Below, in pieces: positions 49,955 through 64,000 of a stretch of 64,000 nt of DNA. A program made the translations under genes and the position numbers. The notes beneath the pieces are model-generated. The model ran no database searches. It was not told the DNA's origin and was given only the letters and a program-made list of their open reading frames with translations. Within the stretch, counting starts at the first letter, position 1; every line of letters starts with the position of its first letter. Origin of the DNA: a virus; the IMG/VR virus record IMGVR_UViG_3300022744_000001, positions 383,762-447,761 of that record; one strand, written 5' to 3'.

Positions 49955-49962
49955 GGCCTCCG

Positions 49963-50458: not shown

Positions 50459-50533
50459 TGGAGACCTGGGTTGGAGTCGAACCAACGCGCCGCGGGTTTG
50501 CAATCCGCGCCCCTCGCCAGAGAGATCCAGGTC
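50459..50533 (-). tRNA. tRNA-Cys(GCA), A8
   Basis: Loop TTGCAAA; U73. Confidence 0.85.
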
Positions 50534-50537
50534 AAAA

Positions 50538-50894
50538 CTATTCGGGCTTCGGGCCCACGCCGGAGTATGGCTTCGCAAAACCCTCGTTGAGCAACACCTG
50601 GTTGACGTTCAACGTGTTGCCATCGGGGAGGTCTACGAACACGGTCGCAAGCCAGCGCCCGTATTTGTCCGACTTGGTGGTGACCACCCGAAGAGAGCCG
50701 AGAGACAAGAGTCGCTCCAGCTCACTCTTGGCAGCGAGCCCAGCGGTTCGAGTCGCACCGACAACCTCGGGAGCATTCAACCCCTCAAGGCGAAAATCCA
50801 GCTCCATGGTGACCCTGAACCCAAGGTCCACGACCATGTAGAGCGTGTCGCCGTCAACTACCCGGGAGAGCTTTGCCTTGTACTCGTAGATCAT
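50538..50894 (-). CDS. Thermonuclease (SNase-like)
   Basis: RVVDGDT, RL.G.NAPE, DKYGR.LA, N..L..EG.A. Confidence 0.9.
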   Translation of the reverse strand: MIYEYKAKLSRVVDGDTLYMVVDLGFRVTMELDFRLEGLNAPEVVGATRTAGLAAKSELERLLSLGSLRVVTTKSDKYGRWLATVFVDLPDGNTLNVNQVLLNEGFAKPYSGVGPKPE

Positions 50895-50918
50895 GCTCAA
50901 GGCGGAGCATGAATAGAT

Positions 50919-50993
50919 TGGAGCAAGCGATGGGGATTGAACCCACGACATCCAGCTTGGGAAGTTGGCGCTCTACCACTGAGCTACGCTTGC
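50919..50993 (-). tRNA. tRNA-Gly(CCC)
   Basis: Loop TTCCCAA; U73. Confidence 0.9.
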
Positions 50994-51000
50994 AAACGGT

Positions 51001-51357
51001 CTAGGGCTCTACACCGATGAACGCGAGTTCGTCCGGAGTGAGCTTCGACAAAATCTTGGCACGAAGGGCACGCCGTGACTCCTCAACCCCTTCGTCAAGG
51101 TGGAGCGGCCTATCGTGGGCGAGGAGGTAGACCTGATCTCCAATCCTCACGCACGAAACCTTCTCCACAGCCCCATCGCCTGGGCCTCGGTTCTTGTCCT
51201 TGGCCACCACTCGAGCCGTGGCCTCGTCGGAGTAGTAGCCGATCAGCGGGCCTGTACCGCCCCCGCAATCGTTCCCACGAGCCGCCCAGGCCGTGAACGG
51301 CCCAGGCTTCTTTGCCAGCTCTACCTCTGCGAAAGTGACGGGGGCCAAATCAGGCAT
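51001..51357 (-). CDS. Hypothetical protein
   Basis: 118 aa; ends LSKLTPDELAFIG; GGTGTA element upstream. Confidence 0.65.
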   Translation of the reverse strand: MPDLAPVTFAEVELAKKPGPFTAWAARGNDCGGGTGPLIGYYSDEATARVVAKDKNRGPGDGAVEKVSCVRIGDQVYLLAHDRPLHLDEGVEESRRALRAKILSKLTPDELAFIGVEP

Positions 51358-51377
51358 GGCATGACGTACACCGAAAT

Positions 51378-51452
51378 TGGAGCAGGTAGCGGGGATTGAA
51401 CCCGCAGCCTCATCGTTGGCAACGATGCGCTCTACCATTGAGCTATACCTGC
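51378..51452 (-). tRNA. tRNA-Gly(GCC)
   Basis: CATCG-TTGCCAA-CGATG; U73. Confidence 0.92.
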
Positions 51453-51457
51453 GAAAT

Positions 51458-51531
51458 TGGTGCGGGTAGCGAGACTTGAACTCGCGCCTTCGCCTTGGCA
51501 AGGCGACATCCTACCTCTGGACGATACCCGC
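51458..51531 (-). tRNA. tRNA-Gly(GCC) with A73
   Basis: TCGCC-TTGCCAA-GGCGA; ends CGC-A-CCA. Confidence 0.85.
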
Positions 51532-51563
51532 GAAAATTGAAGCGTTCGGTGTACCCAAACGCA

Positions 51564-52142
51564 ATGCCCGACAGCCCATCCGCAATGGACTTGATTGAAC
51601 TTATCGAGTCGATGGAAGAACGAGACAGCACTCCGATTGCTCAACCCTCGGAACCGGCACCACAGCTCGCGGCCTCGCTCGATGAAGCTCGCAAACTGTT
51701 TTTCTCGGAACTAGACCGTGGAACTTGTTGCGTGTTGTGCGGACGACACGCGAAACGCTATAAACGGAAACTGAACAGCGGGATGGCTCGAATGCTGATC
51801 CATCTCTACCGCATGTCCACGGACCTACCGGCAGAACAAGACGGCTGGATGCACGTCAGTCACGTCTTTCTGGGGCTCGGTCGAAACGCCGTCGCACAAG
51901 AATACTCCAAGCTTCGGTTTTGGAGTCTCCTTGAAGAACGCCCAAATGATAACCCTGAAATACCCGGTTCGGGGTACTGGAGAGTGACCTCTCTGGGGGC
52001 TTCTTTTGCCCAAGGGCATGTCTCGGTCCCCCGTCACGTTTACGTCTACGACAACGTTTGCACAGGAGTATCCGAAGAACGAACGACTATCCAAGATGCG
52101 CTAGGGGACAAGTTCAACTACGAAGAGTTGATGGCCAGTTAA
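51564..52142 (+). CDS. CxxC + winged-helix-like protein, paralogue of 49436-49954
   Basis: Shared motifs; CGGTGTA on the + strand at 51547. Confidence 0.75.
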   Translation: MPDSPSAMDLIELIESMEERDSTPIAQPSEPAPQLAASLDEARKLFFSELDRGTCCVLCGRHAKRYKRKLNSGMARMLIHLYRMSTDLPAEQDGWMHVSHVFLGLGRNAVAQEYSKLRFWSLLEERPNDNPEIPGSGYWRVTSLGASFAQGHVSVPRHVYVYDNVCTGVSEERTTIQDALGDKFNYEELMAS

Positions 52143-52144
52143 AT

Positions 52145-52219
52145 TGGAGCCCACGGCGGGAATTGAACCCGCGACCTCTTCCTTACCAAGGAAGCGCACT
52201 ACCACTGTGCTACATGGGC
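52145..52219 (-). tRNA. tRNA-Thr(GGT)
   Basis: CTTCC-TTGGTAA-GGAAG. Confidence 0.92.
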
Positions 52220-52275
52220 GAAACTTGAGGGCCTATCCAGGCAGTGCTTGACACCGCGACAGGCCCCTTTCGTAG

Positions 52276-52668
52276 TCAGAAACGGAACTTGGGGAACTTG
52301 CGGTTCCACCCGTCCACGCCAGCGTTACCAAGCGTCTCCACGAGCGCGTGGAAACGGTCCTCGGTCATCGGGTAACGGGCAGTGACCCAGAAGAAAACCA
52401 CGAGCGTGCCATCGGTGCTGGCTCGAACATCAGCAGCTCGAGGGCTCAGCTCCATGTCCCGGTCGCTTTGTAGCGCCGCATTGGTTTTGACCCAGACCGA
52501 CTTGATCACACCCCCGACTTGGATAATCTGCCTTGCCAGGTCGTCCGGCAAAGTCCCAATCCCCGGGTCATACTCAGCCCACACCGGGCCGCCCTTGGGG
52601 CCCAGGTCAGCCCAGACCTTGGTCGAGGCAGCTACTTTCCAGCGGGCTTGGTCATTGTAGTCGTACAT
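52276..52668 (-). CDS. Protein with MYDYND leader
   Basis: MYDYNDQARWKVAAS; AATCTTTTTGT upstream. Confidence 0.65.
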   Translation of the reverse strand: MYDYNDQARWKVAASTKVWADLGPKGGPVWAEYDPGIGTLPDDLARQIIQVGGVIKSVWVKTNAALQSDRDMELSPRAADVRASTDGTLVVFFWVTARYPMTEDRFHALVETLGNAGVDGWNRKFPKFRF

Positions 52669-52698
52669 GGTACTCAAGACCACGGACAAAAAGATTCG

Positions 52699-52772
52699 TG
52701 CGTGTGGCGGGACTCGAACCCGCAAATCTCCTGAGTGGAAGTCAGGCGTCCTAACCATTGAACGACACACGC
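52699..52772 (-). tRNA. tRNA-Gly(TCC), A73, no CCA
   Basis: CCTGA-CTTCCAC-TCAGG. Confidence 0.82.
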
Positions 52773-52778
52773 AAAAAT

Positions 52779-52852
52779 TGGTGGAGCCACCGGGATTTGA
52801 ACCCGGGTTTCTGCGATGCGAACGCAGCGTCCTCCCGCTGGACGATGACCCC
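52779..52852 (-). tRNA. tRNA-Ala(CGC)
   Basis: G3:U70; CTGCG-TTCGCAT-CGCAG. Confidence 0.9.
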
Positions 52853-52857
52853 GAAAT

Positions 52858-52935
52858 TGGTGGAGGCAGCGGAGATTCGAACCCGCACTGACGTCCTGCC
52901 AGAACGCCCGCACTTCCCAGTTATGCTATGCCCCC
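52858..52935 (-). tRNA. tRNA-Ala(GGC)
   Basis: G3:U70; loop CTGGCAG. Confidence 0.85.
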
Positions 52936-52940
52936 GAAAT

Positions 52941-53015
52941 TGGTGGAGATGAGGGGACTCGAACCCCTAACCGCTTCGCTGCCAGCGAAGTGCTCACCCA
53001 TTGAGCTACACCCCC
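52941..53015 (-). tRNA. tRNA-Ala(GGC)
   Basis: G3:U70; CTTCG-CTGGCAG-CGAAG. Confidence 0.9.
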
Positions 53016-53020
53016 GAACT

Positions 53021-53095
53021 TGGTAGGACCAGAGGGACTCGAACCCCCAACTTCAGGCTTGTAATGCCCGCACTCTGCCATTGAGCTATGGTCCC
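53021..53095 (-). tRNA. tRNA-Val(TAC)
   Basis: CGGGC-ATTACAA-GCCTG. Confidence 0.88.
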
Positions 53096-53100
53096 GAAAA

Positions 53101-53175
53101 TGGAGCTGACAGTGGGGCTCGAACCCACAACCTCCTGGTTACAAATCAGGTGCACTACCATTGTGCTATGCCAGC
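53101..53175 (-). tRNA. tRNA-Thr(TGT)
   Basis: Loop TTTGTAA. Confidence 0.9.
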
Positions 53176-53775
53176 TAAAACGTCTTGCCTTTCGGTATAG
53201 CGAAGGCGCCTGGAAACTTGCCGCACCCCTTTCGCACCTCGATTCCGAGATTTGTAGGTGGGAGTTTGAGCGTGACAATTCGGGCAAATCAATCTGAGAT
53301 TACCCCGAGTATTGTTGTCAGAATCGCCATCTATGTGGTCAAGCTCTAAAGGAATTGGTTGCCCATTCCAAACAGTGTTGCTGCACGCCTCACATCGATG
53401 CGGGCGTTCTCGCATCAAAATTCGTTTTCTCGTTGAGTCTGTTTTTGCGCCCTCAAGAGTGACCCTTCTAAGCGCACCCCCAGAACACTGGAAACAGAAC
53501 TTTCTACGACGAACCTTGCGCCCGCATTCAGCGCAAGTCTTACGCAACAACTTACCAGCTCGACCAGAGTTACTGTGCTTGGCGGCACACGAGTGGCCGC
53601 AGAATTTCTTCTGTCGCTCCTCGTAGGAAAGCGGTTTGAAACAGAACTTGCATGACCTGGGAGCCCCCAGATAGCGGGTTACCGCCTCAGCTTTCTGTCT
53701 CTCACGGCAAGCTGCCATCGCAGCTTCCGTCTTCAAATACCCCAGGCGCCCTGCTTCGCTACGAGTGAAAACCAC
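53155..53775 (-). CDS. HNH homing-type endonuclease whose stop lies inside tRNA-Thr(TGT)
   Basis: Several CxxC; LELDHIDG...NN...NLRLICPNCHAQT; lower GC than flanks. Confidence 0.85.
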   Translation of the reverse strand: MVFTRSEAGRLGYLKTEAAMAACRERQKAEAVTRYLGAPRSCKFCFKPLSYEERQKKFCGHSCAAKHSNSGRAGKLLRKTCAECGRKVRRRKFCFQCSGGALRRVTLEGAKTDSTRKRILMRERPHRCEACSNTVWNGQPIPLELDHIDGDSDNNTRGNLRLICPNCHAQTPTYKSRNRGAKGVRQVSRRLRYTERQDVLAGIAQW

Positions 53776-53939
53776 GACCTATTAGGTACACCGACATCGA
53801 ACCAGAACACCTACTTAGGTACCGCTCCCTGTAGAGGAACGGTCATGATTCACCCAAGGACCCTGTTCTGGACTTGCGTTGTCGGAGCCCTCATGTGGTG
53901 GGGCATCATCGCAGGCATCATGCACGCCTGCGGGTGAGT

Positions 53940-54013
53940 TGGTTCGGGTGCAGGGAATTGAACCCCGATTCGTGGGTCCAAAGCCCACTGTCTTGCCGTT
54001 AGACGACACCCGA
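53940..54013 (-). tRNA. tRNA-Gln(TTG)
   Basis: GTGGG-CTTTGGA-CCCAC; U1:A72. Confidence 0.9.
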
Positions 54014-54643
54014 ATGCGAATAGCCAGGTCCTCCCTCGTGAGGGTTTCCATGCCCGCAGTAGAGCGCTCCAGGCGTTCCCGGAGCGCTCGAGCCTCTTCC
54101 GTAGCCTGAGCCATCTCCTCTCGAGAGAGGGGCCGTGGCGGCGGGAGGTTCGTGGCGAGCTTGGGTTTTGGGAAATCCACCATACGTTCTTATCCGATGG
54201 CAGTTAGCACACACCAAATCGCACTTGGCTATCTCTTCCAAAAGGGTGCGATTTGAAGGGTGCAGCTCACGAGCTAGACCTATTGAAAATCGTTTAGTTT
54301 CTGGGTCTCGATGGTCGAAATCCATCACGTAGTGTGGGTAGAGATTCCCGCAATCCATACAAGGTTTACCCTCTTTGGCTTGGGCAATCAGCTCGATAAT
54401 TTCGTCTCTCCGTTTGAGAGAGCGGTCGATATAGTGCGACCTGTTTGAAGCGTAGTGTGTCTTGCCCTGCTGCTTAGTGCAGACACGACAGGAAACCTGC
54501 AAACCATCCCTTCGGCTTTTACAAAGGTTGAACTCCGTTACAGGCTTCTCTGTGGCACACCTACGACAGAATTTGGTCCGGGCGGATGGAGTCGAACCCT
54601 CATTCTCAGATCCAGAATCTGATGTCCTACCGTTGGACGACAC
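53999..54643 (-). CDS. HNH endonuclease-like protein whose reading frame overlaps tRNA-Gln genes at both ends
   Basis: C..C...K...EF, SC..C, C.DCG, DFDH, EIAKC.LVCANCH; start uncertain (in-frame GTG at 54643 is inside a tRNA). Confidence 0.7.
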   Translation of the reverse strand: MSSNGRTSDSGSENEGSTPSARTKFCRRCATEKPVTEFNLCKSRRDGLQVSCRVCTKQQGKTHYASNRSHYIDRSLKRRDEIIELIAQAKEGKPCMDCGNLYPHYVMDFDHRDPETKRFSIGLARELHPSNRTLLEEIAKCDLVCANCHRIRTYGGFPKTQARHEPPAATAPLSRGDGSGYGRGSSAPGTPGALYCGHGNPHEGGPGYSHSGVV

Positions 54644-54647
54644 CCGA
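54574..54647 (-). tRNA. tRNA-Gln(CTG)
   Basis: TCAGA-TTCTGGA-TCTGA. Confidence 0.88.
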
Positions 54648-54689
54648 GTAACTACACCAGCTCGGCCTTCGCCAAAGCCAGAATGAAAT

Positions 54690-54763
54690 TGGTTCGGGTG
54701 CAGGGATTCGAACCCCAATAGCAAGATCCAGAATCTTGCGTCCTACCATTAGACGACACCCGA
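54690..54763 (-). tRNA. tRNA-Gln(CTG)
   Basis: CAAGA-TTCTGGA-TCTTG. Confidence 0.9.
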
Positions 54764-54799
54764 ATACGTATACGAAGCGGCACTAATGAAATACCGCGG

Positions 54800-54866
54800 T
54801 GCAAGGAGATGGACATGAACCATCATCTGGGACGATCGCCCCCGCTCTACCTTGAGCTACCCCTGC
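54800..54866 (-). ncRNA. tRNA-like RNA with a 4-nt anticodon loop (no usable anticodon)
   Basis: Intact acceptor, D and T arms; anticodon arm GGGGC-GATC-GTCCC. Confidence 0.7.
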
Positions 54867-54871
54867 AAACT

Positions 54872-54943
54872 TGGCGCGGCGGTGAGGAATCGAACCCCAT
54901 CCTGCGAATTTGGAATTCGCTTGGCTACCTTAGCCCCCTCCGC
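54872..54943 (-). tRNA. Atypical tRNA-Trp(CCA) with a shortened D-arm
   Basis: GCGAA-TTCCAAA-TTCGC; G73-CCA; G8. Confidence 0.75.
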
Positions 54944-54949
54944 AAAAAT

Positions 54950-55025
54950 TGGCGTCCCGGGCAGGAGTCGAACCTGCGACCAACGACTTAGGAAGTCGCT
55001 GCTCTGTCCACTGAGCTACCAGGAC
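54950..55025 (-). tRNA. tRNA-Arg(CCT)
   Basis: GCGAC-TTCCTAA-GTCGT. Confidence 0.92.
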
Positions 55026-55099
55026 ATGGTGGGCACTACACCACTAATCCACCTTTGGTGAGCGATAGGTGGATCTCGCATTTTCAGAAGGGCCATCCC

Positions 55100-55804
55100 A
55101 TGGACAAGATCGCCTCTCCTCTTGAACTCATCGCAGCACTCGAGGACCTACTCGATTACGCTCAAACCGAACGCCCCTCGCGAGAGCTGATCGCCTCTGA
55201 GCTGACTGAACTCTCCGAGCGCGTAGCAGCTCGCTTCGTCATGCCACGAAGCAGCTACCTCCCCGAAGAGGTTCGCGGCAAAGACCCGATCGTCCCCGAG
55301 GGTACTGACCTCGCCATTTGGACTTGGGAGGGCCAGGGCAACTTCTACGGCATCTGCTTCGTCGCCAAGCAGAGCAAACCGCTTTGGCACTACCGGTTCC
55401 GGAGCGAAGCTGCGCGTGAGGCCGAGATCAAAAAGACGATCGAGAGCCGCAAGAAGTCGCTTGAGTACAAGAATCAGAAGGTACTGGAGCGCAAGAACTT
55501 CAAGCACACGATGAAAGAGGGCGACATCCTCTACTCCTCGTGGGGTTATGACCAGACCAACGTGGAGTTCTACCAGGTCGTCGCTGTGGGCGATGCCACG
55601 GTCAAAATCCGCGAAATTGGGAGCAAGGTCGTCAAATCCGACAGCAGCGCCGACTATGTGTCCGCGGTTCCGAACAACTTCCAGGGCCCTGCGATGACGA
55701 AGCGAGTCTCTCCGAGCAACTCCATCCGGTTGAATTCGTTCTCGAGCGCTCGCCCGTGGGACGGGAAGCCCAAATACCAGACCGGAGCTTACGCCGGTCA
55801 CTGA
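55100..55804 (+). CDS. Hypothetical protein with an N-terminal 'MDKIAS...ERVAA' helical leader
   Basis: 234 aa; C-terminal GDILYSSWGYDQTNVEFYQV domain. Confidence 0.75.
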   Translation: MDKIASPLELIAALEDLLDYAQTERPSRELIASELTELSERVAARFVMPRSSYLPEEVRGKDPIVPEGTDLAIWTWEGQGNFYGICFVAKQSKPLWHYRFRSEAAREAEIKKTIESRKKSLEYKNQKVLERKNFKHTMKEGDILYSSWGYDQTNVEFYQVVAVGDATVKIREIGSKVVKSDSSADYVSAVPNNFQGPAMTKRVSPSNSIRLNSFSSARPWDGKPKYQTGAYAGH

Positions 55805-56004
55805 TCTTCACGGACCAGCCGAATCGCTTCAAGCTGCTTGGCGTCCGTGATGAGCCCTGTGCTGTAGGTGAGCCGGAATCTCCCATCCGGCATCTCCTCA
55901 ATGTAGAGGTTCTTCTTCGGCATGTTGACCTCGGTCACCTTGCCGATTTCGATCCTCTGCCCTCCCTCGAACTCGAGGAAGCGTCTCGGTTTGCTTTCAG
56001 TCAT
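55798..56004 (-). CDS. Hypothetical protein
   Basis: AGGAG Shine-Dalgarno + ATG at 56004; 68 aa. Confidence 0.6.
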   Translation of the reverse strand: MTESKPRRFLEFEGGQRIEIGKVTEVNMPKKNLYIEEMPDGRFRLTYSTGLITDAKQLEAIRLVREDQ

Positions 56005-56020
56005 GACTACTCCTTGAGAT

Positions 56021-56096
56021 TGGCGCCCTGAACGGGAGTCGAACCCGCCAGATCTCGCGTGACAAGCGAGTGCTCCCACCAGAGAGCCTCCAGGGC
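56021..56096 (-). tRNA. tRNA-Asp(GTC), A8
   Basis: CTCGC-TTGTCAC-GCGAG; G73. Confidence 0.85.
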
Positions 56097-56101
56097 AAAA
56101 T

Positions 56102-56178
56102 TGGGGTGAGTAGCCGGAGTCGAACCGAGCTTGACCAGGGCCACAACCTGGCGCCCTTACCGAAGGGCGATACCCACC
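56102..56178 (-). tRNA. tRNA-His(GTG) with encoded G-1
   Basis: CCAGG-TTGTGGC-CCTGG; C73. Confidence 0.88.
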
Positions 56179-56184
56179 ATAAAT

Positions 56185-56260
56185 TGGGGTGACCGATGGG
56201 ATTTGAACCCACAACAACCGGAGCCACAATCCAGTGCTCTACCAATTGAGCTACGGCCAC
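56185..56260 (-). tRNA. tRNA-His(GTG) without encoded G-1
   Basis: CTGGA-TTGTGGC-TCCGG; C73; the -1 base is T. Confidence 0.9.
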
Positions 56261-56301
56261 ATCTTGCCAGCTCAACCCTTGCAGGGAACTGGACTTAAAA
56301 T

Positions 56302-56378
56302 TGGCGCCTCAGACGGGGATCGAACCCGCCCACTCTTGCTTGACAAGCAAGCGTTCACAACCAGTGAACCTCTGAGGC
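56302..56378 (-). tRNA. tRNA-Asp(GTC), A8, 6-bp D-stem
   Basis: CTTGC-TTGTCAA-GCAAG. Confidence 0.85.
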
Positions 56379-56413
56379 AAAATCTTCTGGTCAACCTCCC
56401 CACAAGGAGGCCC

Positions 56414-56812
56414 ATGGTTTACGACTACGATTTCCAAGACCGTACCGCCCACGATGTCAAAATGACCCCCAAAGGCAGTATCTACACGTTCCGAGTTGGC
56501 GGGGCCGAACTTCACGCGAGACTCACGGGCTCGGACTTCAAAGTCATCTCGGTTGACTCCCCCGAAGCCGTGCGTGGTCAAGGGGTAGGCAAAGCCATGT
56601 ACCGAGCGCTTTTCGAGGAAGCGGAACGCCAAGGCAAAGGCGTCATCTCCGACCTCACGGTTGAGGAGCCCGCCGCCCGCGTCTGGGAATCCCTGAAGCG
56701 CGAAGGCTTCCCGATCCAGAAGCACCCCCAAGCCGAGATGATCGAGCTTGACGACGGCGGTCGCGCTTGGTTCGTCCCGAGCGACAAACCCGTATACCGC
56801 ATGAAGCGGTGA
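56414..56812 (+). CDS. GNAT-like acetyltransferase with MVYDYDF leader
   Basis: RGQGVGKAMY acetyl-CoA motif; A.RVWESL; GGAGG Shine-Dalgarno. Confidence 0.8.
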   Translation: MVYDYDFQDRTAHDVKMTPKGSIYTFRVGGAELHARLTGSDFKVISVDSPEAVRGQGVGKAMYRALFEEAERQGKGVISDLTVEEPAARVWESLKREGFPIQKHPQAEMIELDDGGRAWFVPSDKPVYRMKR

Positions 56813-56815
56813 AGT

Positions 56816-56905
56816 TGGCGGAGAGAGTAGGATTCGAACCCTGGCCCCTTTCGAGGCCCTCCACTGTTTAGCAAACAGGTCCAGCGCCTTGCTAGTTCCC
56901 TCTCC
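56816..56905 (-). tRNA. tRNA-Ser(GCT), non-canonical 8-bp acceptor stem
   Basis: GGAGAGGG/CTCTCTCC; loop TTGCTAA; long V-arm. Confidence 0.85.
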
Positions 56906-56915
56906 AAAAAGGTTT

Positions 56916-57017
56916 GCCTGGCTGCCCCCTTGAGCACGTCGAAGTCTCCGTGAGGGCAACCTTGGGCCGGGCAAGCGGCCTTTCCAACACACGGAGGTTA
57001 ACTCCCTGCCACCAGGC
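56916..57017 (-). ncRNA. Candidate rod-shaped ncRNA
   Basis: Nested helices GCCTGG/CCAGGC, CTCCGTG/CACGGAG, GGCCG/CGGCC between two tRNA-Ser genes. Confidence 0.4.
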
Positions 57018-57053
57018 TAAACGGAATCAAACCGAGGGCACCGTGGTCGAAGT

Positions 57054-57143
57054 TGGCGGAAGATGTAGGATTCGAACCCTGGCCCCTTTCGAGGCCCTCC
57101 ACCGCTTTCGAAGCGGGTCCGGCGCCTTACCGGTTCATCTTCC
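57054..57143 (-). tRNA. tRNA-Ser(CGA), non-canonical 8-bp acceptor stem
   Basis: GGAAGATG/CATCTTCC; loop TTCGAAA. Confidence 0.85.
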
Positions 57144-57145
57144 AA

Positions 57146-57691
57146 TCAGGCTTGCACCGTAGGCGTCACATACAAACCCCAAGGGGTATACGTGCCGTTG
57201 TCGGTGTCCAGAAACCCCCAGTCATAGCCGTCGGACTCGGCCACTCGCTCATTCGAAAAGAAGAGCGTCCAGACCCGTCCGTTGTTCAGCTCGACTCGGT
57301 GAAAATCGTTGCGGCCGATCCGGTTCAGCGACCAAGGCTTGACCCAGATCTTGTCCATGGTCTTCTTGGCGGCGTTCCACCGGTGCTCGAGGTAGCCTCT
57401 CGTGAGAACCAGGCTGACAGCCTTGGTCCAAGGGTGGTTGTGAACCTCGCGGTCCCCATCGCTCCGGAAGAACCGGTGCAGGTAAACGCCCCTCGCCTCG
57501 CTTCGATAAAGGTACACCCGAAGGAGGTAAGGGTCGGTCTGGTCCTTGTTCCAGATGATGCGGACCTTGCCAGGGTTGTTGAGAGCAACCCACCACAGGA
57601 GCCGTTCAAACCTTGTGAGATTCCCCTGGTGTTGTTCCTTCTGGAACTCCGCGGTCATTGCGATTCTGTCGTATTCCTCTTGCTGTAGCAT
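57146..57691 (-). CDS. Cupin-like (double-stranded beta-helix) protein
   Basis: YLH.F..SD....HNHPW, GY.E, FHRV. Confidence 0.7.
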   Translation of the reverse strand: MLQQEEYDRIAMTAEFQKEQHQGNLTRFERLLWWVALNNPGKVRIIWNKDQTDPYLLRVYLYRSEARGVYLHRFFRSDGDREVHNHPWTKAVSLVLTRGYLEHRWNAAKKTMDKIWVKPWSLNRIGRNDFHRVELNNGRVWTLFFSNERVAESDGYDWGFLDTDNGTYTPWGLYVTPTVQA

Positions 57692-57715
57692 GAGGTGAAA
57701 TACACCAGAGCCCGG

Positions 57716-57753
57716 AAAAAACTGACCTCCCGTAGCTGTTGCTAAGGGAGGTC
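57716..57753 (-). terminator. Intrinsic terminator after the ncRNA at 57761-57888
   Basis: GACCTCCC...GGGAGGTC hairpin followed by AGTTTTTT. Confidence 0.65.
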
Positions 57754-57760
57754 GAAAAGA

Positions 57761-57888
57761 AACGCCCGAGTTTGCAGTGCTGGTTTTGGCGCATGAGGCT
57801 GGAGTTGAACCAGCTACCATCTAGTTATCAGCTAGAAGCTCTACCAATTGAGCTACTTATGCATGTAGGCACTGCACGTTTGGGCGTT
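57761..57888 (-). ncRNA. Y-RNA-like element 1 (topology B): whole tRNA-Ile(GAT)-like body (57787-57862, with CCA) nested in the module stem
   Basis: AACGCCC-A...TGCAGTGC-C-TACATGCA[tRNA]...GCACTGCA-AA-CTC-GGGCGTT; own CGGTGTA element upstream. Confidence 0.75.
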
Positions 57889-57896
57889 GAAACTTG

Positions 57897-58382
57897 TTAC
57901 ACCGCGATCCCCTTACGGAGCCCATCGAGTTGCTTGTGCGCCCCGTAGAGCTGGATGCTGGTATCGAGCATCTGGTCAAGGGAGTTGACCAGATAGATGT
58001 TGGGGGCGTCCACCTTCTGGAGGTGCCCCAGGACGATCTTGCGGGCGTTGCGAGAGTCTTTGCAACGGGCCGGATCGTCGAGGCGCGCATGCAGCTCGGT
58101 CTCGATGTAGACCACGAAGCTACGGTTCCGGTTCTGACGCATGGCGCGAAGAGGGCCAAACCCCAGCTCCGAGAGCGAAGCCACGCCGTACGACCAGCCG
58201 AGGATGGGGAACAAGACGATGTCGTCCTCGGCCAGGTGTTGAGCTTCCTGCTCGACCAGGCCAGGGTGCCAGTCGTCCACCATGGGGTTGAAGTAGGGGA
58301 TGCCGAGCATGTCGTAACGCGACATGAAAGCATCTCGCCAACGATTGTTGTCACAGGTGCCGAAGAGTCCAACGCAGAGCAT
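57897..58382 (-). CDS. Nucleoside 2-deoxyribosyltransferase-like protein
   Basis: GLFGTC...WR, FNP.VDDW, E..HL...DIVLF, S..E.G. Confidence 0.7.
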   Translation of the reverse strand: MLCVGLFGTCDNNRWRDAFMSRYDMLGIPYFNPMVDDWHPGLVEQEAQHLAEDDIVLFPILGWSYGVASLSELGFGPLRAMRQNRNRSFVVYIETELHARLDDPARCKDSRNARKIVLGHLQKVDAPNIYLVNSLDQMLDTSIQLYGAHKQLDGLRKGIAV

Positions 58383-58412
58383 ATTACCTCCGCGCCTGAC
58401 TACACCGGTGAC

Positions 58413-58721
58413 TCAAGCCTTGGTGAAATCCTTGTCGAGCGCCTTCTCGAGCAACTCGTGACCATGAGCTTTGTCGATGAAGCGAGTGGCAAACCGCTGA
58501 GCCTGCTCAAGCTCATCGAAGGTCTTCTTGGCTTTGAAGGTGCCGTGAGGGGTCTTCACCTTCGCAGTGAACTTGTCGCCCGACTTGGCGATCTCCCACT
58601 CGTGCTTCTCGCCTTTGGCGTATTGAACATGGGAGAGCCACTTGCCACCCTTTTCTGTGAAGTCTACCTTCGCAGCAACAAGGTTCAGGGCTACTCGACC
58701 ACGGAAATCATAATCGTACAT
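58413..58721 (-). CDS. Protein with MYDYDF leader
   Basis: MYDYDFRGRVA; AGGAG Shine-Dalgarno; GATCCTCTTGT upstream. Confidence 0.7.
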   Translation of the reverse strand: MYDYDFRGRVALNLVAAKVDFTEKGGKWLSHVQYAKGEKHEWEIAKSGDKFTAKVKTPHGTFKAKKTFDELEQAQRFATRFIDKAHGHELLEKALDKDFTKA

Positions 58722-58727
58722 GCCGAA

Positions 58728-58771
58728 CTCCTGGTCTGACTGTCCTACAAGAGGATCAATCAGACCAGGAG
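58728..58771 (-). promoter_or_regulatory. Shine-Dalgarno-sequestering hairpin with a late-promoter-like motif in its loop
   Basis: Perfect 11-bp inverted repeat CTCCTGGTCTG / CAGACCAGGAG. Confidence 0.6.
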
Positions 58772-58778
58772 CGACGTT

Positions 58779-58920
58779 TGGAGGGGGATTTGGGAGTCGA
58801 ACCCAAACTTGCTTGTATGAGCCTCAGAGTGACCCCTCACGAGGTCGAGATGAGACGCAGGATTAGAGCTTTCGCTCCACCGTGGAAAGGTGGTGAGGCA
58901 CCGAGCCTCTGTAATCCCCC
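58779..58920 (-). ncRNA. Y-RNA-like element 2 (topology A): tRNA-Gly(TCC)-like with the module inserted in the variable region
   Basis: GGGGGAT/ATCCCCC-T-CCA; CTC-GACC..GGTC-A; TACAAGCA before the T-arm. Confidence 0.75.
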
Positions 58921-58928
58921 GAAAATAT

Positions 58929-59045
58929 GGTGCCCGAGTGACAGGGTTGGTTATTGACGCAGCAGGATTTGAACCCACATAGTCCGCTTAAGAGGCGGAT
59001 GACCTACCATTGGTCGATGCTTGTAAACCCCATCTGATGGGCACC
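58929..59045 (-). ncRNA. Y-RNA-like element 3 (topology B): tRNA-Lys(CTT)-like arms within the module stem
   Basis: GGTGCCC-A...GGGTT-TACAAGCA-[D, anticodon, T arms]...AACCC...CTC-GGGCACC. Confidence 0.75.
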
Positions 59046-59085
59046 GTAAACTTTGAGCTGTGAGGTCGCTCGAGCCGAAAAGGGC

Positions 59086-59214
59086 GAGTGCCCGAGTTGC
59101 AGTGTCGTGACTCCCCTCTCGGGGCGCAATGGGAGTTGAACCCACTACCTTCAGATCCAAATCTGACGCTCTACCAAGTGAGCTATGCATGTAGACACTG
59201 CGGGATGGACACTC
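59086..59214 (-). ncRNA. Y-RNA-like element 4 (topology B), 6-nt anticodon loop TTTGGA
   Basis: GAGTGTCC-A...GCAGTGTC-TACATGCA-[arms]...GACACTGC-AA-CTC-GGGCACTC. Confidence 0.75.
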
Positions 59215-59215
59215 T

Positions 59216-59346
59216 TGGGGCGGATAATTGGAGTCGAACCAATCATTTGCGTGTAGACGCGCTTAGGTGGCCCCTCGCAGGGCCGAGTACGAGCGTCGGA
59301 TTTGCTTCTTGTTCAGAGAAGTGTCCCCCACGGGACTTTATCCGCC
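59216..59346 (-). ncRNA. Y-RNA-like element 5 (topology A): His-like acceptor (G-1/C73), GAA anticodon
   Basis: GACGC...CTC-GGCCC..GGGCC-A...GCGTC-TACACGCA; T-arm; CCA. Confidence 0.75.
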
Positions 59347-59380
59347 ATACATCCCCTGATAACCCCCAGGGGCAGGGGAG

Positions 59381-59512
59381 TGGCGCCGGACCCTGGAGTC
59401 GAACCAGGCTATGCTTGTAGACGCTCCGAGATGGCCCCTCGCGGGGCCGAGGATAGAACGTCGGGAATTGCTTCGGTGATATCGAAGTGACCTCCCCGAG
59501 GTCTAATCCGGC
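59381..59512 (-). ncRNA. Y-RNA-like element 6 (topology A): Asp-like (ATC anticodon, G73)
   Basis: GACGTTC...CTC-GGCCCC..GGGGCC-A...GAGCGTC-TACAAGCA; T-arm; CCA. Confidence 0.75.
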
Positions 59513-59518
59513 ATGATT

Positions 59519-59626
59519 GTCAGGTGCGGAAACCCGCTTCGCCCCGGAGGGATTGTCGCCTGACGCGACCTTGCTTGAGGGCGGTATTCCCACCTTCCCC
59601 TTTCGGGTCCGGCTCTCAAGCCGCCG
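59519..59626 (-). ncRNA. Candidate structured RNA (pseudoknot + three-way junction)
   Basis: GGCGG/CCGCC crossed with CTTGAG/CTCAAG; then a GTCAGG/CCTGAC junction; CGGTGTA element just upstream. Confidence 0.45.
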
Positions 59627-59673
59627 GTTACTCTTGCTACACCGGGTCGAGGTCATCGACCCGGGAAAAAACA

Positions 59674-59815
59674 GACTCACACTCGAGAACTGGAGCTGGT
59701 TGCGTTTGTTCGTTCCGTAGACGAATGCCTGATCCAATTCGGCCACAAGGACTAATGCCCTCGGCGGGATTCGAACCCGCATTTGCTTGTAAGATCCAGA
59801 GAATGAGTGTGAGTC
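59674..59815 (-). ncRNA. Y-RNA-like element 7 (topology C, YrlA-like): circularly permuted tRNA-Arg(ACG)
   Basis: Order is T-arm, acceptor stem closed by an ATTA loop, D-arm, anticodon arm, all within the GACTCACACTC/GAGTGTGAGTC stem; TACAAGCA; U-tract after. Confidence 0.8.
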
Positions 59816-59820
59816 GGAAA

Positions 59821-59955
59821 CGGTGAAGGGCGATGGATTCGAACCACCTATTGCGTGTAAGAACCGCCTAGTTTGCCCCTTATTTAGGGCGAGATGCGGT
59901 GCTGGGTTTGCGTCTGATTTACCGTCAGATGGGCTGCCATTGCCCAATGCCCCTC
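59821..59955 (-). ncRNA. Y-RNA-like element 8 (topology A): Tyr-like (GTA, A73)
   Basis: ACCGC..CTC-GCCC..GGGC-A...GCGGT-TCT-TACACGCA; T-arm. Confidence 0.75.
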
Positions 59956-59994: not shown

Positions 59995-60576
59995 TCAAGT
60001 GGAAATCGCACCCGTGGGCATCACTTGAAAGCCGATTTTTCTCCCGTGTACCAGGTATTCCTTGGCCGAATGAGCCAGGTAAGAAGACGTGATGGAGATG
60101 AAAGGCAGGTGTGCCCCATCTTCGCAGGTGGCCGCACCCGTACCAGACTCGTCATCGATCACGAAGTTCTCATCCCAAACGACTCGACCAAACCCGCCAT
60201 TCGCCGCGAGGGCGCCATGAAGGCAGGGTATTGAGTTTGCTCGAGCGAAGCCCTGCACTACTCGGCGAGCTGCCCCGTTGTCGAGACAGTCGATGAGAAG
60301 GTCAGACTTGCCGAGAACCTCTTTGGAATTGGACTCAACCAACTTGTGCGGGACCGTCTCGACTTTCAGGCCCCAGAAAAACTGGACCGCTTGCTGGAGC
60401 GCGAGCACCTTGGTTTTGCCAACCGAGGATTTCGCATGGAACTGGCTCTGGGTGTTCTTCTGCTCGACGCGGTCGAAGTCTACGACCCGGAGCTGTGCAC
60501 CCACGTTCCTCAACAACGGGACAAGGTGAGAACCCAAAGCCCCTACGCCAACAATGGTTACGATCTTCATCTTCAT
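59995..60576 (-). CDS. ThiF/E1-like adenylating enzyme
   Basis: IVGVGALGS, DFDRVE.KN...Q, K.K, IDCLDN..AR, candidate catalytic Cys in ATCED. Confidence 0.9.
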   Translation of the reverse strand: MKMKIVTIVGVGALGSHLVPLLRNVGAQLRVVDFDRVEQKNTQSQFHAKSSVGKTKVLALQQAVQFFWGLKVETVPHKLVESNSKEVLGKSDLLIDCLDNGAARRVVQGFARANSIPCLHGALAANGGFGRVVWDENFVIDDESGTGAATCEDGAHLPFISITSSYLAHSAKEYLVHGRKIGFQVMPTGAIST

Positions 60577-60812
60577 CTCTCCTTGACCAGCCGCTGGATG
60601 ATAGCCAGAAGCCGACCCACATCTTGGGAAGCCTTCAAGATGGCTTCACGATCCTCGGAAGTGGCATAGACGAGGCGATAGGCGAGCTTGCCTTCACCGT
60701 CTAAAGCCGCTCCATTGGGGAGGATGTCGAGCGGTTTGGTAGCTCGGGCCCAGCGACCCTCTATCTCAGCGAGAAGCAGGTGCTCCTCAAGCTCAAGAGC
60801 GCCAAACACCAA
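60573..60812 (-). CDS. Small hypothetical protein in the Ubl operon
   Basis: 79 aa, overlapping both neighbours. Confidence 0.55.
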   Translation of the reverse strand: MVFGALELEEHLLLAEIEGRWARATKPLDILPNGAALDGEGKLAYRLVYATSEDREAILKASQDVGRLLAIIQRLVKER

Positions 60813-61080
60813 AGGGTGTCTTGGGTCGAAGCTGAATCAGGTTGTACGGACGGGTCGCGGTCGCCGAGAAGCGCTCAACCACGAAGTCGGCAAAGTTCGC
60901 AGCCGGGTCCGCGGCAATGCCCGGGATTCCTCCCTGCACGGCCTCGGTCGCGATCTGGCGAACGTCACCTTCGGTGGACTGGAAGTACATGGGGTCCGGA
61001 AGCTCCCCATACTGCCCGTTCCAGGTGATCCCCAAACGGGCCTGGTCCTGGTCGAGCACTACTACGATTTCATCTGCCAT
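60793..61080 (-). CDS. Putative ubiquitin-like (beta-grasp) modifier with a short C-terminal propeptide
   Basis: 95 aa between JAB and E1; beta-beta-alpha-beta-beta pattern; ends LRPKTPFG-VWRS. Confidence 0.6.
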   Translation of the reverse strand: MADEIVVVLDQDQARLGITWNGQYGELPDPMYFQSTEGDVRQIATEAVQGGIPGIAADPAANFADFVVERFSATATRPYNLIQLRPKTPFGVWRS

Positions 61081-61097
61081 TTGGATCTCCTTTGAAT

Positions 61098-61571
61098 CTA
61101 GTCGAGAAGGTTGCAGAACGCTTCGTCGGTCCCCAGCGAGGTGATGCGACCCGGAGGGAGCGCGTAGCAGGACAGCTTCCGAAGCTCCCTCACCCAGGCG
61201 GGCTCAGCCGTGTTCTGGATGATGAACCCCTTGTAGTCATGCCTGTCCGGACCAACCCAGTGAAACGCCACGAGGGTGTCCTCGCTCGTGATCCACCAGC
61301 ACAACCTACGCCCCAACGCAGCCTCGACAGCCGCGAAGGTCGTCACGTCCTCCTGGGAAGGCCCTGGCAGCCCAGAGCCCGGGTGAGAATGGGCAACACC
61401 ACGAAGGGTCGCCCTGTTCTTCCAGAGAACGTCCCACAGCTCCCGAGAGTCCGGAAGCGAACCCCCAGTGCGACCCGCAGGAAGATGCCAGTGCAAAACC
61501 TGGCGCTCTTCCCCGATAACCGCTCCTGCTTCAATCGTCATAATCATCTCCTTCGTAGTCTTCACCCACAT
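61098..61571 (-). CDS. JAB/MPN+ metalloprotease (deubiquitinase-like)
   Basis: E...HSHP......PS.ED JAMM motif. Confidence 0.85.
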   Translation of the reverse strand: MWVKTTKEMIMTIEAGAVIGEERQVLHWHLPAGRTGGSLPDSRELWDVLWKNRATLRGVAHSHPGSGLPGPSQEDVTTFAAVEAALGRRLCWWITSEDTLVAFHWVGPDRHDYKGFIIQNTAEPAWVRELRKLSCYALPPGRITSLGTDEAFCNLLD

Positions 61572-62496
61572 GGCGAAACACCACGAGCTTTCCCAGGTTC
61601 ATCGCTTCTCGAATGACACCGGGAAAGGACTCCAACGTGAAATACGTGTCGCCCTTTTCGCCGGTGCGGTGATCGACCAAGCAAATTCCAGAGTCGATGA
61701 TTCGCAGGGTAGTCTTGTCGCACACACACTCGAACTGGCGGCGCTGGAAGAGGAACTGCACCACCATCTCGTTACGCCCGTACGCCGGGCGACTGTCGAG
61801 GTATTCGGCACCCCCAACGGCCAGAGCCGCTCGAGCTGCCTCCCCGAAGTCCACCTGGGCCATCTGGCGACGACCCTCTGCGTTCCCGAGACGTTCTGCG
61901 AGCTGACGACGCTGCTCCTCTCGGGCACGCCGTTCCGCCTCCTCCCGACGCCTCTGCTCGGCCTCAGCCCGTTGCCGGGCCGTCTCTGCCCTCCGCCACG
62001 TCTCGAGCCGAAAAGCCATGTCCAGGGCCGGGGAAACCCCCTTGATCCCTGCCACAGACTCTGCTCGAGCTTGGAAGGCTTGTCGGACCTCGTCCTCGGG
62101 CCCCTGGGGCATGTCCAGGGACTCATAGAAGAACCGACCCCCGAGCTTGCCCGCCACGATCCGAACGAACCGGTCAATGCCCGGTTCAACCAGGTTGACG
62201 GGGACCGAGCACAAGATGAACTTGTCAGGGTCAGGGTCAACTCGAACCCCATCCAAGATCAAGTGGTCTCCAACCAAATAGCCCTTGGCTTTCTCCCCCA
62301 GTCGCTCCGGGGCAGGGTCAGCCAGGGAAACCCACGAGGCATTCCGCCCCGAGAGCTTGAATGTGTGCCACCCGTGTTCGCGGGGCAGGGGGCCTTTGAG
62401 GCCCCACACGCGGTCTTTGGAATGGAGGATCTTCCCGCCAGCCCAGGGAAGAACAATCGTCTCGTCCTCAGCCTGTAGAAGATCCTGCCATCCCAT
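61531..62496 (-). CDS. Putative E2-like conjugating enzyme (C-terminal domain) with a charged helical linker
   Basis: 'IIDSGICL....FTLESFPGVIREA' resembles the UBC G.ICL catalytic-Cys region and following helix; operon context. Confidence 0.55.
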   Translation of the reverse strand: MGWQDLLQAEDETIVLPWAGGKILHSKDRVWGLKGPLPREHGWHTFKLSGRNASWVSLADPAPERLGEKAKGYLVGDHLILDGVRVDPDPDKFILCSVPVNLVEPGIDRFVRIVAGKLGGRFFYESLDMPQGPEDEVRQAFQARAESVAGIKGVSPALDMAFRLETWRRAETARQRAEAEQRRREEAERRAREEQRRQLAERLGNAEGRRQMAQVDFGEAARAALAVGGAEYLDSRPAYGRNEMVVQFLFQRRQFECVCDKTTLRIIDSGICLVDHRTGEKGDTYFTLESFPGVIREAMNLGKLVVFRHVGEDYEGDDYDD

Positions 62497-62504
62497 GACT
62501 CACC

Positions 62505-64000
62505 TCACGCCGCGATCGCCCAGGTGGGCTTCTTGAGCAACTCAGTCTTCAGGATCGTGTCCACCAGCGTGACGCGGGGAGCGACCGGGGCCACAGCTGC
62601 CTTACCCACGGGCGTTGCCGCCACGAGAGCACGGATGGTGCGGGGAATCGCGTACACGTCATTGAAGGTGTTGTTGTCGATCCGGAAGCACGGGACACCG
62701 AGCTTGGCCGCGGTCGTGGTCACAGTGCTACCGTGACCACCGCTGCTCCGACCCAGCACCCGAAGGAAGCCGAACGCCATCGGGTTGAGACCCGAGTCAC
62801 GTACGACGTTCTCGAATGACTGCTCACCCTCCTCGTCACCGACGAAGATGAACAGCGAGTCCTCGTCCGCCTGGGGCTTGAAGTTCTGGAGGGACTTCAC
62901 ACCCGCCGCGTACGAGGTTCCGCCACCGGCAGTCACGCCTCGGAAAGCGTTAGCCACACCGGGGGCCGATGCGTGCTTGATCGCGATCTCACGACCCACC
63001 GTGTTGAACACGGAGACGTGGAGCCGATCCAACGAGAAAGCCTGGAGGAACTTGGAGATGTACTCCTTGGCCTGCTCGATTGCACCTTCCATCGAGCCAG
63101 AGATGTCCACCATGAAGTAGATGCGAAGGTTCCGGGTGACCTCTTCGACCGCCTTCTTGAGGGCGTTGTCCGAAGCCTCCTGGAGCTTCTCCACGTTCTC
63201 GGTCTTCTTCAACCGAAGGGCGATGTTGCTTGCGCGCATGTCCTCGGCTGCCTTGACTGCCCCCTCCCACCGCTTGCGGATGTCTGGTACCTCGAGCAGG
63301 CCCAGGTCCTCAAGCGTCGGGCTGTAGATGAGCAGGTCCTTGTTGGAGAACCCGCCCGCCTCGATGGAGGCCGCGACCACGGCACGGGTGAGGCCCACTT
63401 CCTTGGGAAGGAGACCCACGACGCGCTTGAAGTTCGGCTTCTCGAGCACGATGCGTTCGCACACCTGCTTCTCAGTCAAACCGTCCCACGTGACCGCGGC
63501 GGTGACCTTCTGACCGATGAGGATAGACCGACGACCGTCCTTCGACTGGTCCTGCTTCCAACGCAGGACTTCGAAGAACTTGGGCGTCTCGGGCTTGTAG
63601 CCGACCCGACGGGCCAACTCCATCACCGTGGTGCGCCAACCGCTCTTGACGAGGCCCTCGAGAACCTTGGGGTTCTCCTCTCGGTACCTCAGCCACTTCT
63701 CCACGGCCTTCTCCCAGCGCCCCAGGAAGGGGCGACGGGCGCTCTTGCCGAAGCCAAGCTCACGGTTGATGGCCGCGATACCGGGCAGCTTCAAGACGTC
63801 ATGGATGCGGAGCAGGAGGTTGGGCTTGAAGTCCACGTCCTTCATGTGCTGAAGGATCATGGCCTCACCCACGTCGCGGAAATCCTCGTCGTGGAAGGCG
63901 ACCTTGCCGCCATCGAGGACCGGGTCGCCCTTGCGGTTCTGAACCAGCATGAACGCCGCCAAAACGGCCTTCATGTCACGGTGCGGCTGCTTGTACACGT
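62505..64000 (-). CDS. Divergent Ro60/TROVE-like helical protein with a C-terminal vWA domain (N-terminus beyond the window)
   Basis: vWA MIDAS VDISGSM, GGT, VGDE; TROVE-like 'GRWEKAVEKWL' and 'GWRTTVMELARRVGYKP'. Confidence 0.65.
   Translation of the reverse strand, partial: VYKQPHRDMKAVLAAFMLVQNRKGDPVLDGGKVAFHDEDFRDVGEAMILQHMKDVDFKPNLLLRIHDVLKLPGIAAINRELGFGKSARRPFLGRWEKAVEKWLRYREENPKVLEGLVKSGWRTTVMELARRVGYKPETPKFFEVLRWKQDQSKDGRRSILIGQKVTAAVTWDGLTEKQVCERIVLEKPNFKRVVGLLPKEVGLTRAVVAASIEAGGFSNKDLLIYSPTLEDLGLLEVPDIRKRWEGAVKAAEDMRASNIALRLKKTENVEKLQEASDNALKKAVEEVTRNLRIYFMVDISGSMEGAIEQAKEYISKFLQAFSLDRLHVSVFNTVGREIAIKHASAPGVANAFRGVTAGGGTSYAAGVKSLQNFKPQADEDSLFIFVGDEEGEQSFENVVRDSGLNPMAFGFLRVLGRSSGGHGSTVTTTAAKLGVPCFRIDNNTFNDVYAIPRTIRALVAATPVGKAAVAPVAPRVTLVDTILKTELLKKPTWAIAA

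Follow-up and report, generated by a model that had tools for sequence, protein, structure and literature searches.

A conserved module of huge phages places a predicted ubiquitin-like modifier system beside a putative Ro60-like protein and tRNA-shaped RNAs

Introduction

Why does a huge phage carry, among its tRNA genes, an E1-type adenylating enzyme, a JAB peptidase and a candidate ubiquitin-like (Ubl) modifier side by side with a von Willebrand factor A (vWA) protein that resembles Ro60? The locus lies at the end of IMG/VR record IMGVR_UViG_3300022744_000001, a phage contig of 447,761 bp whose final part, the 64-kb stretch from position 383,762 to 447,761 (64,000 nucleotides; GC ~59%), was analysed as a whole and is referred to here as the window. 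An earlier interpretation made from the letters of this stretch (the sequence-only reading) described six minus-strand open reading frames (ORFs), in the order TROVE-like/vWA, E2-like, JAB, Ubl candidate, small ORF and E1/ThiF, as a phage operon coupling a Ro60-type protein to a full ubiquitin-like conjugation pathway. All six ORFs are present in that order, as are the motifs it had quoted (GICL in the putative E2, HSHPGSGLPGPSQED in the JAB protein and ATCED in the E1), and tRNA-like units directly follow the E1 gene on the operon strand, where it had placed an RNA array. The features, with window coordinates, are:

62505-64000 (ORF 62505-63998), minus strand: 3' part of the vWA/Ro60-like gene, encoding the C-terminal 497 amino acids (aa) of a 625-aa protein
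61531-62496, minus strand: 321-aa partner, Cys-bearing, with OB-like barrels in an AlphaFold 2 (AF2) model
61098-61571, minus strand: JAB/JAMM metallopeptidase (Pfam Prok-JAB and JAMM motif)
60793-61080, minus strand: putative Ubl modifier precursor, 95 aa (RPKTPFG followed by the tail VWRS)
60573-60812, minus strand: 79-aa ORF between the Ubl and E1 genes, peculiar to this phage
59995-60576, minus strand: ThiF/MoeB-type E1, 193 aa (Pfam ThiF)
~58790-59900, minus (operon) strand: array of ~7-8 tRNA-shaped RNA units (partial Rfam matches, folds and motif)

Five of these proteins and the small RNAs form one conserved module. The safest statement of its function is that a single module trims and activates a Ubl next to a Ro60-like particle. 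Beyond this we favour, with evenly divided confidence, a reading in which the Ubl would travel by way of Cys151 of the E1 and Cys272 of the 321-aa protein and be conjugated to a protein that is part of that particle or one of its clients. The module probably serves the handling of tRNA or other structured RNA; the phage copy sits inside a tRNA array, and an RtcB RNA ligase is encoded in the same genome. The interpretation offered by the sequence-only reading is supported in part.

Recent work has shown that Ubl systems of bacteria and phages take part in phage-host conflict, and Ro60-Y RNA particles are an old puzzle; a widespread, conserved module that joins a Ubl to a Ro60-like particle suggests a function that neither field has considered. 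That it lies within the tRNA arrays of huge phages may partly explain how such phages manage their own translation apparatus, and the system, with five proteins and its RNAs, is compact and testable in E. coli.

Conservation of the module

This huge phage shares the module with ~70 related phage contigs and a number of myxobacterial genome bins. Loci were fetched with an alignment of the 321-aa protein family, and gene order was read by tblastn with the window proteins; the order vWA, 321-aa protein, JAB, Ubl, E1 was found at 58 IMG/VR loci (often on contigs of 200-620 kb), in Virus Rctr197k, on 32 genome-bin contigs and at 10 loci found through the Ubl, and it holds in essentially all fetched loci. 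Virus Rctr197k was the sole match of a protein search in the phage collection, a nucleotide search of which returned no relative. An alignment query was needed, as a locus scan with a single sequence of the 321-aa family returned no loci. Spacing differs between the two settings, with variable insertions between the genes in phages and a compact arrangement in the genome bins.

Ascertainment by the Ubl only gave 63 loci, 10 of them on new contigs, and the 321-aa gene occupies the same place in all 10. When the ORFs of 95 distinct loci were clustered, exactly five recurrent same-strand families emerged (in 94, 94, 87, 85 and 82 loci), the 321-aa gene being present in 94 of the 95; no sixth conserved gene appeared, the next two clusters being alternative-frame ORFs inside the vWA gene. 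The recurring arrangement is not due to chance, and this neighbourhood survey, which the sequence-only reading had proposed, bears out a single module of five genes with a linked RNA motif. The 79-aa ORF had been counted as part of the operon, which does not hold: it has no tblastn match at any related locus, is missing from the recurrent families and, as judged from these comparisons, is outside the conserved module. The 321-aa, 95-aa and 79-aa products gave zero matches in Pfam, PHROGs and PADLOC. The 321-aa family is nonetheless large, with >1,200 relatives in a word-indexed search and 483 representatives at 50% identity in an exhaustive one; the 150 best-scoring of these 483 are near full-length or fragmentary members of the family itself, with no distant relatives among them.

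The genome-bin contigs are mostly assigned to Myxococcota; among them are contigs as long as 1.03 Mb and 544 kb (70-74% GC), from bins that measure 8-12 Mb. Such long, GC-rich contigs in bins of this size indicate that some copies of the module are chromosomal. Other 'bin' contigs have tRNA arrays of the phage type and could themselves be phage DNA. On the 544-kb contig, from a Polyangiaceae bin (L066, 70% GC), an EF-Tu gene lies upstream of the module (L066:3555-4940 (+)) and three tRNA-Ser genes lie downstream (L066:8912-9488).

The E1 enzyme, the Ubl precursor and the JAB peptidase

The identification of the E1 as a ThiF-family protein proved secure. The protein matches Pfam ThiF (PF00899) at 5.2e-26 (91.7 bits against a cut-off of 28.1) and the E1 part of the PADLOC E1-E2 models at 4e-14, and its closest solved relative is E. 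coli MoeB (1jw9; 1.1e-9), followed by ThiF, Uba4 and the SUMO E1. The motifs GxGxxG, D33, K56, DCxDN and Cys151 (T-C-E) are kept at >=90% among 44 sequences, and Cys151 aligns with MoeB Cys187, the cysteine of the crossover loop. The CxxC zinc motif of MoeB is missing, the Arg of its NLQRQ motif is not conserved, and the relatives span 189-198 aa. The E1 is a minimal, single-domain MoeB-like adenylating enzyme; its gene is the only ThiF-family member in the whole genome.

Towards the C-terminus of the Ubl precursor the motif RPKTPFG is invariant, its Gly being kept in all 38 aligned members. In the window this residue, Gly91 (60808-60810), is followed by the four-residue tail VWRS. Across the family the tails comprise 0-61 variable residues, and the Gly is itself the end of the protein in 25 of 85 surveyed loci; the longest tails (45-61 residues) occur at L001, L031, L037, L040 and L055. 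Longer relatives (P0125, P0127, P0130, P0137) carry an N-terminal Ubl with RPKTPFG at every junction, fused to the E1 itself (P0125), to a RyR domain (PF02026) or to other small domains, a pattern which, on sequence grounds, is that of precursor fusions freed by a peptidase. The conserved Gly thus sustains the earlier proposal of a Ubl; a match to the ubiquitin, ThiS or MoaD families does not accompany it, as neither Pfam at E 10 (38 members) nor a PDB profile search returned any family.

The JAB protein falls just below the Pfam Prok-JAB cut-off (3.7e-5; 24.0 bits against 25), and its full JAMM motif (E14, H61-x-H63, S72-x-x-D75) is conserved in 48 sequences, in agreement with its original assignment. 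Its start codon probably lies 8-10 codons downstream of the ATG that was listed. JAB is the predicted trimmer of the Ubl tail. At the loci that lack a JAB gene the Ubl stops exactly at the Gly in 12 of 12 cases, whereas at JAB-bearing loci it has a tail in 60 of 73 and ends at the Gly in 13 (Fisher p ~1e-6).

These three proteins also suit the main rival to conjugation, in which the Ubl would serve as a sulfur carrier: its glycine, adenylated by the E1, would be converted to a thiocarboxylate, and the sulfur would go to phage tRNAs or the tRNA-like RNAs, much as TtuB/TtuC or Urm1/Uba4 thiolate their substrates, with a persulfide relay perhaps provided by Cys272 of the 321-aa protein and the RNA perhaps held by its OB barrels. 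Among solved structures MoeB, ThiF and Uba4 come closest to the E1, which has a single domain with an equivalent of MoeB Cys187; the module lies within tRNA arrays, and no E2 is recognisable. JAB-type trimming of sulfur carriers is moreover familiar from CysO/Mec and QbsE/QbsD. We nevertheless consider this reading unlikely. The sequence-only reading had remarked that no tRNA-thiolation gene lies nearby, and a PP-loop ATPase of the TtuA/TilS type (PF01171) was indeed found neither in the 448-kb genome nor among the recurrent neighbours at the 95 loci, which also include no rhodanese or desulfurase. The Ubl ends in Phe-Gly, whereas known sulfur carriers end in Gly-Gly. Thiolation would in addition leave the obligatory Ro60-like/vWA partner without a role, and Ubl fusions to varied cargo domains resemble ubiquitin-type precursors.

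The Cys-bearing 321-aa protein

The AF2 model of the 321-aa protein (38 sequences; mean predicted local distance difference test, pLDDT, 83.5) comprises two OB-like β-barrels (residues ~10-130), an Arg/Glu-rich helix (156-203) and an α/β domain (206-310). Its only invariant Cys in a diverse alignment (33-52% identity) is C272, in the motif G-I-C-L, just after the fourth strand (265-268) of the modelled structure. Structural comparison of the whole model by VIA against 48,161 chains gave as the best match the tandem OB inter-domain of the Mpa ATPase (Z 5.5, root-mean-square deviation (rmsd) 4.3, 107 aligned residues), followed by other OB folds; the C-terminal domain (211-299) gave weak matches, the best to the RWD chain 5mu3 (Z 4.1, rmsd 3.8, 76 aligned residues). 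There is no HPN motif upstream of Cys272, and a search for long fusions of the C-terminal domain found none.

The proposal that this protein is an E2 with a UBC fold was not upheld, as Foldseek, VIA, Pfam and PDB profiles recovered no UBC domain and left the weak RWD-like match and the invariant Cys; judged from the models and profiles, it is not demonstrably a UBC E2. A 'full' conjugation pathway is consequently not shown. An acceptor role for Cys272 is plausible all the same because G-I-C-L resembles G-x-I-C-L-D, the active-site motif of canonical E2s, and Cys272 is thus a candidate Ubl acceptor in an 'E2-like' role. The possibility of a Cys3-His zinc site was considered separately and dropped; Cys259 and His276 vary in the diverse set, which argues against such a site.

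The Ro60-like vWA protein

The vWA protein matches Pfam VWA_2 (5.7e-7), and the residues of its MIDAS (the metal-ion-dependent adhesion site; D-x-S-x-S, T and D) are invariant among 48 sequences. Its structure was modelled on a full-length homologue of 69% identity (L008:2838-4721; AF2, 48 sequences, pLDDT 84.1), the model of which comprises an N-terminal β domain, ~300 residues of helical repeats and a vWA domain. Foldseek placed Ro60/TROVE structures at the top of its matches to this model (9kop at 2e-8, then 9l5y, 2nvo and 1yvp), covering five sources: a TROVE-domain entry (9kop), Ro60 of Thermus phage phiLo, Deinococcus Rsr, and human and Xenopus Ro60. The matches range from E 2e-8 to 4e-5 over 470-550 columns and stand ahead of most plain vWA domains; the vWA domain alone gives Z ~14. 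The ESM features of the protein lie nearest to TROVE/DUF2828 (0.86), which is a lead only.

The family is, on the modelled structure, Ro60-like in architecture yet separate, because a Ro60-like fold is found where Pfam TROVE and profile comparison fail (detailed below). The earlier designation as TROVE-like/vWA is therefore kept as regards fold and MIDAS, and not as regards membership of the Pfam TROVE family. The Ro60/TROVE models PF05731 and PF25045 gave no match, with no TROVE hit in the whole genome at E 10, and no canonical TROVE gene was found in five related huge phages. In two of five module-bearing bins, both of myxobacterial type, a canonical TROVE/vWA_Ro60 protein is encoded elsewhere (L159:829-2430 (-) and L160:886-2451 (-)), so that the vWA protein of the module is a second, distinct Ro60-like family there.

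The tRNA-shaped RNAs

The module sits inside a tRNA array. All 34 tRNA genes of the window are minus-strand genes, 28 of them with an encoded CCA, and 19 more follow at the start of the contig, within its first 6.3 kb (contig 592-6260); in all, the same-strand array comprises 53 ARAGORN calls (window 41196-59513 and contig 592-6260). One odd tRNA, at 54798-54866, has a two-base anticodon call.

The array units next to the E1 gene are heterogeneous. Rfam recognises two of them as partial tRNAs (58959-59020 and 59126-59188; model positions 5-66, no acceptor ends), and a tRNA-Sec match within the array is weak (24.8 bits). Two units fold as tRNAs, with acceptor stems of 7-9 bp, an encoded CCA and a large extra arm that ends in a G-C hairpin, and in both the extra arm is followed by UACANGCA and then the T-arm. 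The combination of UACANGCA with a T-arm was counted five times in the window, where none was expected. A slightly relaxed form of the motif has 54 occurrences across 85 loci, all of them on the operon strand and 48 within 1.5 kb of the module, and is linked to the module in 40 of the 85 loci. The RNAs had been called Y-like, which is apt in that they are tRNA-shaped and adjoin a Ro60-like gene, and inexact in that the Rfam YrlA model (RF02553) scores 22.1 bits against a threshold of 69 at 59727-59781, with no YrlA match in ten related loci.

RNAs of this kind could act in several ways. The particle with its RNAs might select the target that is tagged, or the Ubl might be attached to RNA itself; we regard such an RNA-guided or RNA-directed Ubl system as improbable. 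Were it true, it would provide a direct mechanistic link from Ro60-type RNA surveillance to ubiquitin-like modification, and might reveal the ligand of the Ro60-type MIDAS site.

The sequence-only reading went further and cast the Ro60-like particle as an E3 or substrate receptor whose tRNA-mimicking RNAs bait tRNA-binding host proteins, such as anticodon nucleases and toxins, for Ubl tagging in phage counter-defence. This is a conjecture, and one we consider distinctly unlikely. The embedding of the module in a phage tRNA array, with tRNA-shaped RNAs that have acceptor stems and CCA, is what such a lure would look like; the RtcB gene of this phage points to pressure from enzymes that cut tRNA, and a receptor role would agree with how strictly the RNAs, the Ro60-like protein and the Ubl genes are linked. 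The E2 status of the 321-aa protein is, however, unproven and the target conjectural, and the module also occurs, without tRNA arrays, on contigs of 0.25-1 Mb (70-74% GC) in myxobacterial-type bins of 8-12 Mb, so that it is not purely a phage counter-defence device.

The acceptor stems and encoded CCA kept by the tRNA-like RNAs raise a further reading, in which the Ubl acts on a non-protein partner: it would be ester-linked to the CCA end or ribose of these RNAs, with the E1 behaving like an aminoacyl-tRNA synthetase, or would dock non-covalently on the vWA MIDAS as a regulator. The invariance of the MIDAS, whose ligand is undescribed even for Ro60 and whose role there is still described as unclear (PMC12135203), is in keeping with the latter version, and no E2 fold is recognised. 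An encoded CCA is, on the other hand, the ordinary style of this phage's tRNAs (28 of 34), and a partner with an invariant Cys suggests thioester chemistry. We know of no prokaryotic precedent for a Ubl on a non-protein acceptor, and hold this reading to be very unlikely.

Protein conjugation as the favoured reading

In the favoured reading, conjugation to protein, a Ubl of ~90 aa would be made with a short or long C-terminal tail, and JAB would cut after the invariant RPKTPFG. The MoeB-like E1 would adenylate the Ubl glycine and then probably hold the Ubl on Cys151, from where it would be passed to Cys272 of the 321-aa protein. The OB-like barrels and the rigid, charged helix would position the latter on the particle that the Ro60-like/vWA protein makes with the adjacent tRNA-shaped RNAs, and the Ubl would end on a component or client of that particle.

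Several observations weigh against this reading, and we infer, rather than observe, conjugation and its target, the thioester transfer and the part of Cys272 as acceptor. Single-domain E1s of the MoeB type also make thiocarboxylates. The 321-aa model had no Foldseek match at E <=0.001 and no UBC chain among the matches listed, nor is there one among the best 50 VIA matches; UQ_con and Prok-E2 are absent for the family (Pfam at E 10, 38 members; PADLOC), and PDB profile searches with the whole protein and with its C-terminal domain gave no E2. For the Ubl, a β-grasp fold is indicated solely by the nearest non-family neighbours of its ESM Atlas model (predicted TM-score 0.68), PB1 and DUF348 (TM 0.43-0.54), which are ubiquitin-like folds and which we treat as a lead, not as proof, and its terminus is Phe-Gly rather than Gly-Gly. 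The association of tails with JAB is also weaker once kinship is considered: on the tree of the 321-aa protein the presence of JAB changes ~6 times and four independent pairs lie on supported branches, none contrary, and with ~4-6 independent losses the sign test is not significant. As for the particle, the Foldseek TM-scores to Ro60 are low (0.24-0.32), Pfam TROVE is matched neither by the two parts of the window protein nor by the full-length Rctr197k homologue, and hhalign against a canonical TROVE protein aligns just the start of the vWA domain, at a probability of 0.5%.

Comparison with known systems

The closest parallels in chemistry are the haloarchaeal SAMP/UbaA/HvJAMM1 system and Thermus TtuB/TtuC with its JAMM protein, which likewise pair a single-domain MoeB-like E1 bearing a crossover-loop Cys with a small modifier whose C-terminal Gly is essential and a JAMM peptidase, and have no canonical E2. 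The present Ubl differs in ending in Phe-Gly and in having no sequence match to the ThiS, MoaD or SAMP families, and the module differs in its obligatory Cys-bearing OB-domain protein, its Ro60-like/vWA protein and its tRNA-like RNAs, with no thiolation enzyme.

In operon layout, the same four roles are found together in Bil (BilABCD) and the related Ubl-E2-JAB-E1 operons of types 6d/6c (PMC1779556; bioRxiv 10.1101/2023.09.26.559546), namely a tailed Ubl, a JAB that exposes its Gly, an E1 and a Cys-bearing partner. Whereas the Bil E1 consists of an inactive and an active adenylation domain and a mobile Cys domain, the E1 described here is a single domain of 193 aa; the Bil E2 has a recognisable UBC fold, unlike the 321-aa partner, and Bil has neither a Ro60-like protein nor RNAs. 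Only the E1 of the module matches PADLOC, and it scores best against the E1-E2 (Cap2) models of CBASS (4e-14). A JAB partner is shared with CBASS Cap2/Cap3 too, but here there is no E1-E2 fusion and no CD-NTase, and the substrate is a dedicated small Ubl.

Ro60 (Rsr) and Y RNA systems provide the third point of reference. They share with the module helical repeats and a vWA/MIDAS domain (by fold search), RtcB in the same genome and genes for tRNA-mimicking RNAs directly beside the protein gene; examples are Salmonella rsr-yrlBA-rtcBA, the Deinococcus Rsr-Y RNA-PNPase complex and Ro60 of Thermus phage phiLo with Yrl1/2 (PMC4201824, PMC12135203). In contrast to canonical Ro60, the vWA protein matches neither Pfam TROVE nor vWA_Ro60 and has an extra N-terminal β domain, and the RNAs fall below the Rfam YrlA threshold and have a different conserved extra arm. 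Canonical Ro60 loci, for their part, have no Ubl, E1 or JAB genes.

Literature searches that paired TROVE/Ro60 with E1, JAB or ubiquitin-like terms turned up no account of such a link, in line with the remark of the sequence-only reading that the combination was new to it. TROVE proteins are noted solely as RNA-repair partners in a survey of jumbo phages (PMC7824862), in an Asgard-virus preprint a Ro60 gene and ThiF genes are listed for a single virus but are not connected, and the classic survey of prokaryotic Ubl operons records no vWA or TROVE neighbourhood (PMC1779556).

Genome setting and neighbouring genes

The two ends of the contig are identical over exactly 127 bp (window 63874-64000 corresponds to contig bases 1-127), which indicates that the assembly is circular or circularly permuted. 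The vWA gene crosses this end into contig bases 1-512, and the joined product is the 625-aa protein; its N-terminal 128 aa are encoded by contig bases 128-512, outside the window (L004:3-512:- shares the 127-bp repeat). As the gene is split at the assembly break, gene callers working on the linear record would truncate it.

The RtcB RNA ligase (PF01139, 5e-90) is encoded at window 39744-41183 (-), at the edge of the tRNA array. Also at this edge are genes for a GroEL-type chaperonin (37749-39344 (-)) and for another vWA protein, unrelated to the first (41918-43693 (-)), and within the array lie genes for an HNH endonuclease and a nucleoside 2-deoxyribosyltransferase-like protein (window 43797-44378 (-) and 57897-58382 (-)).

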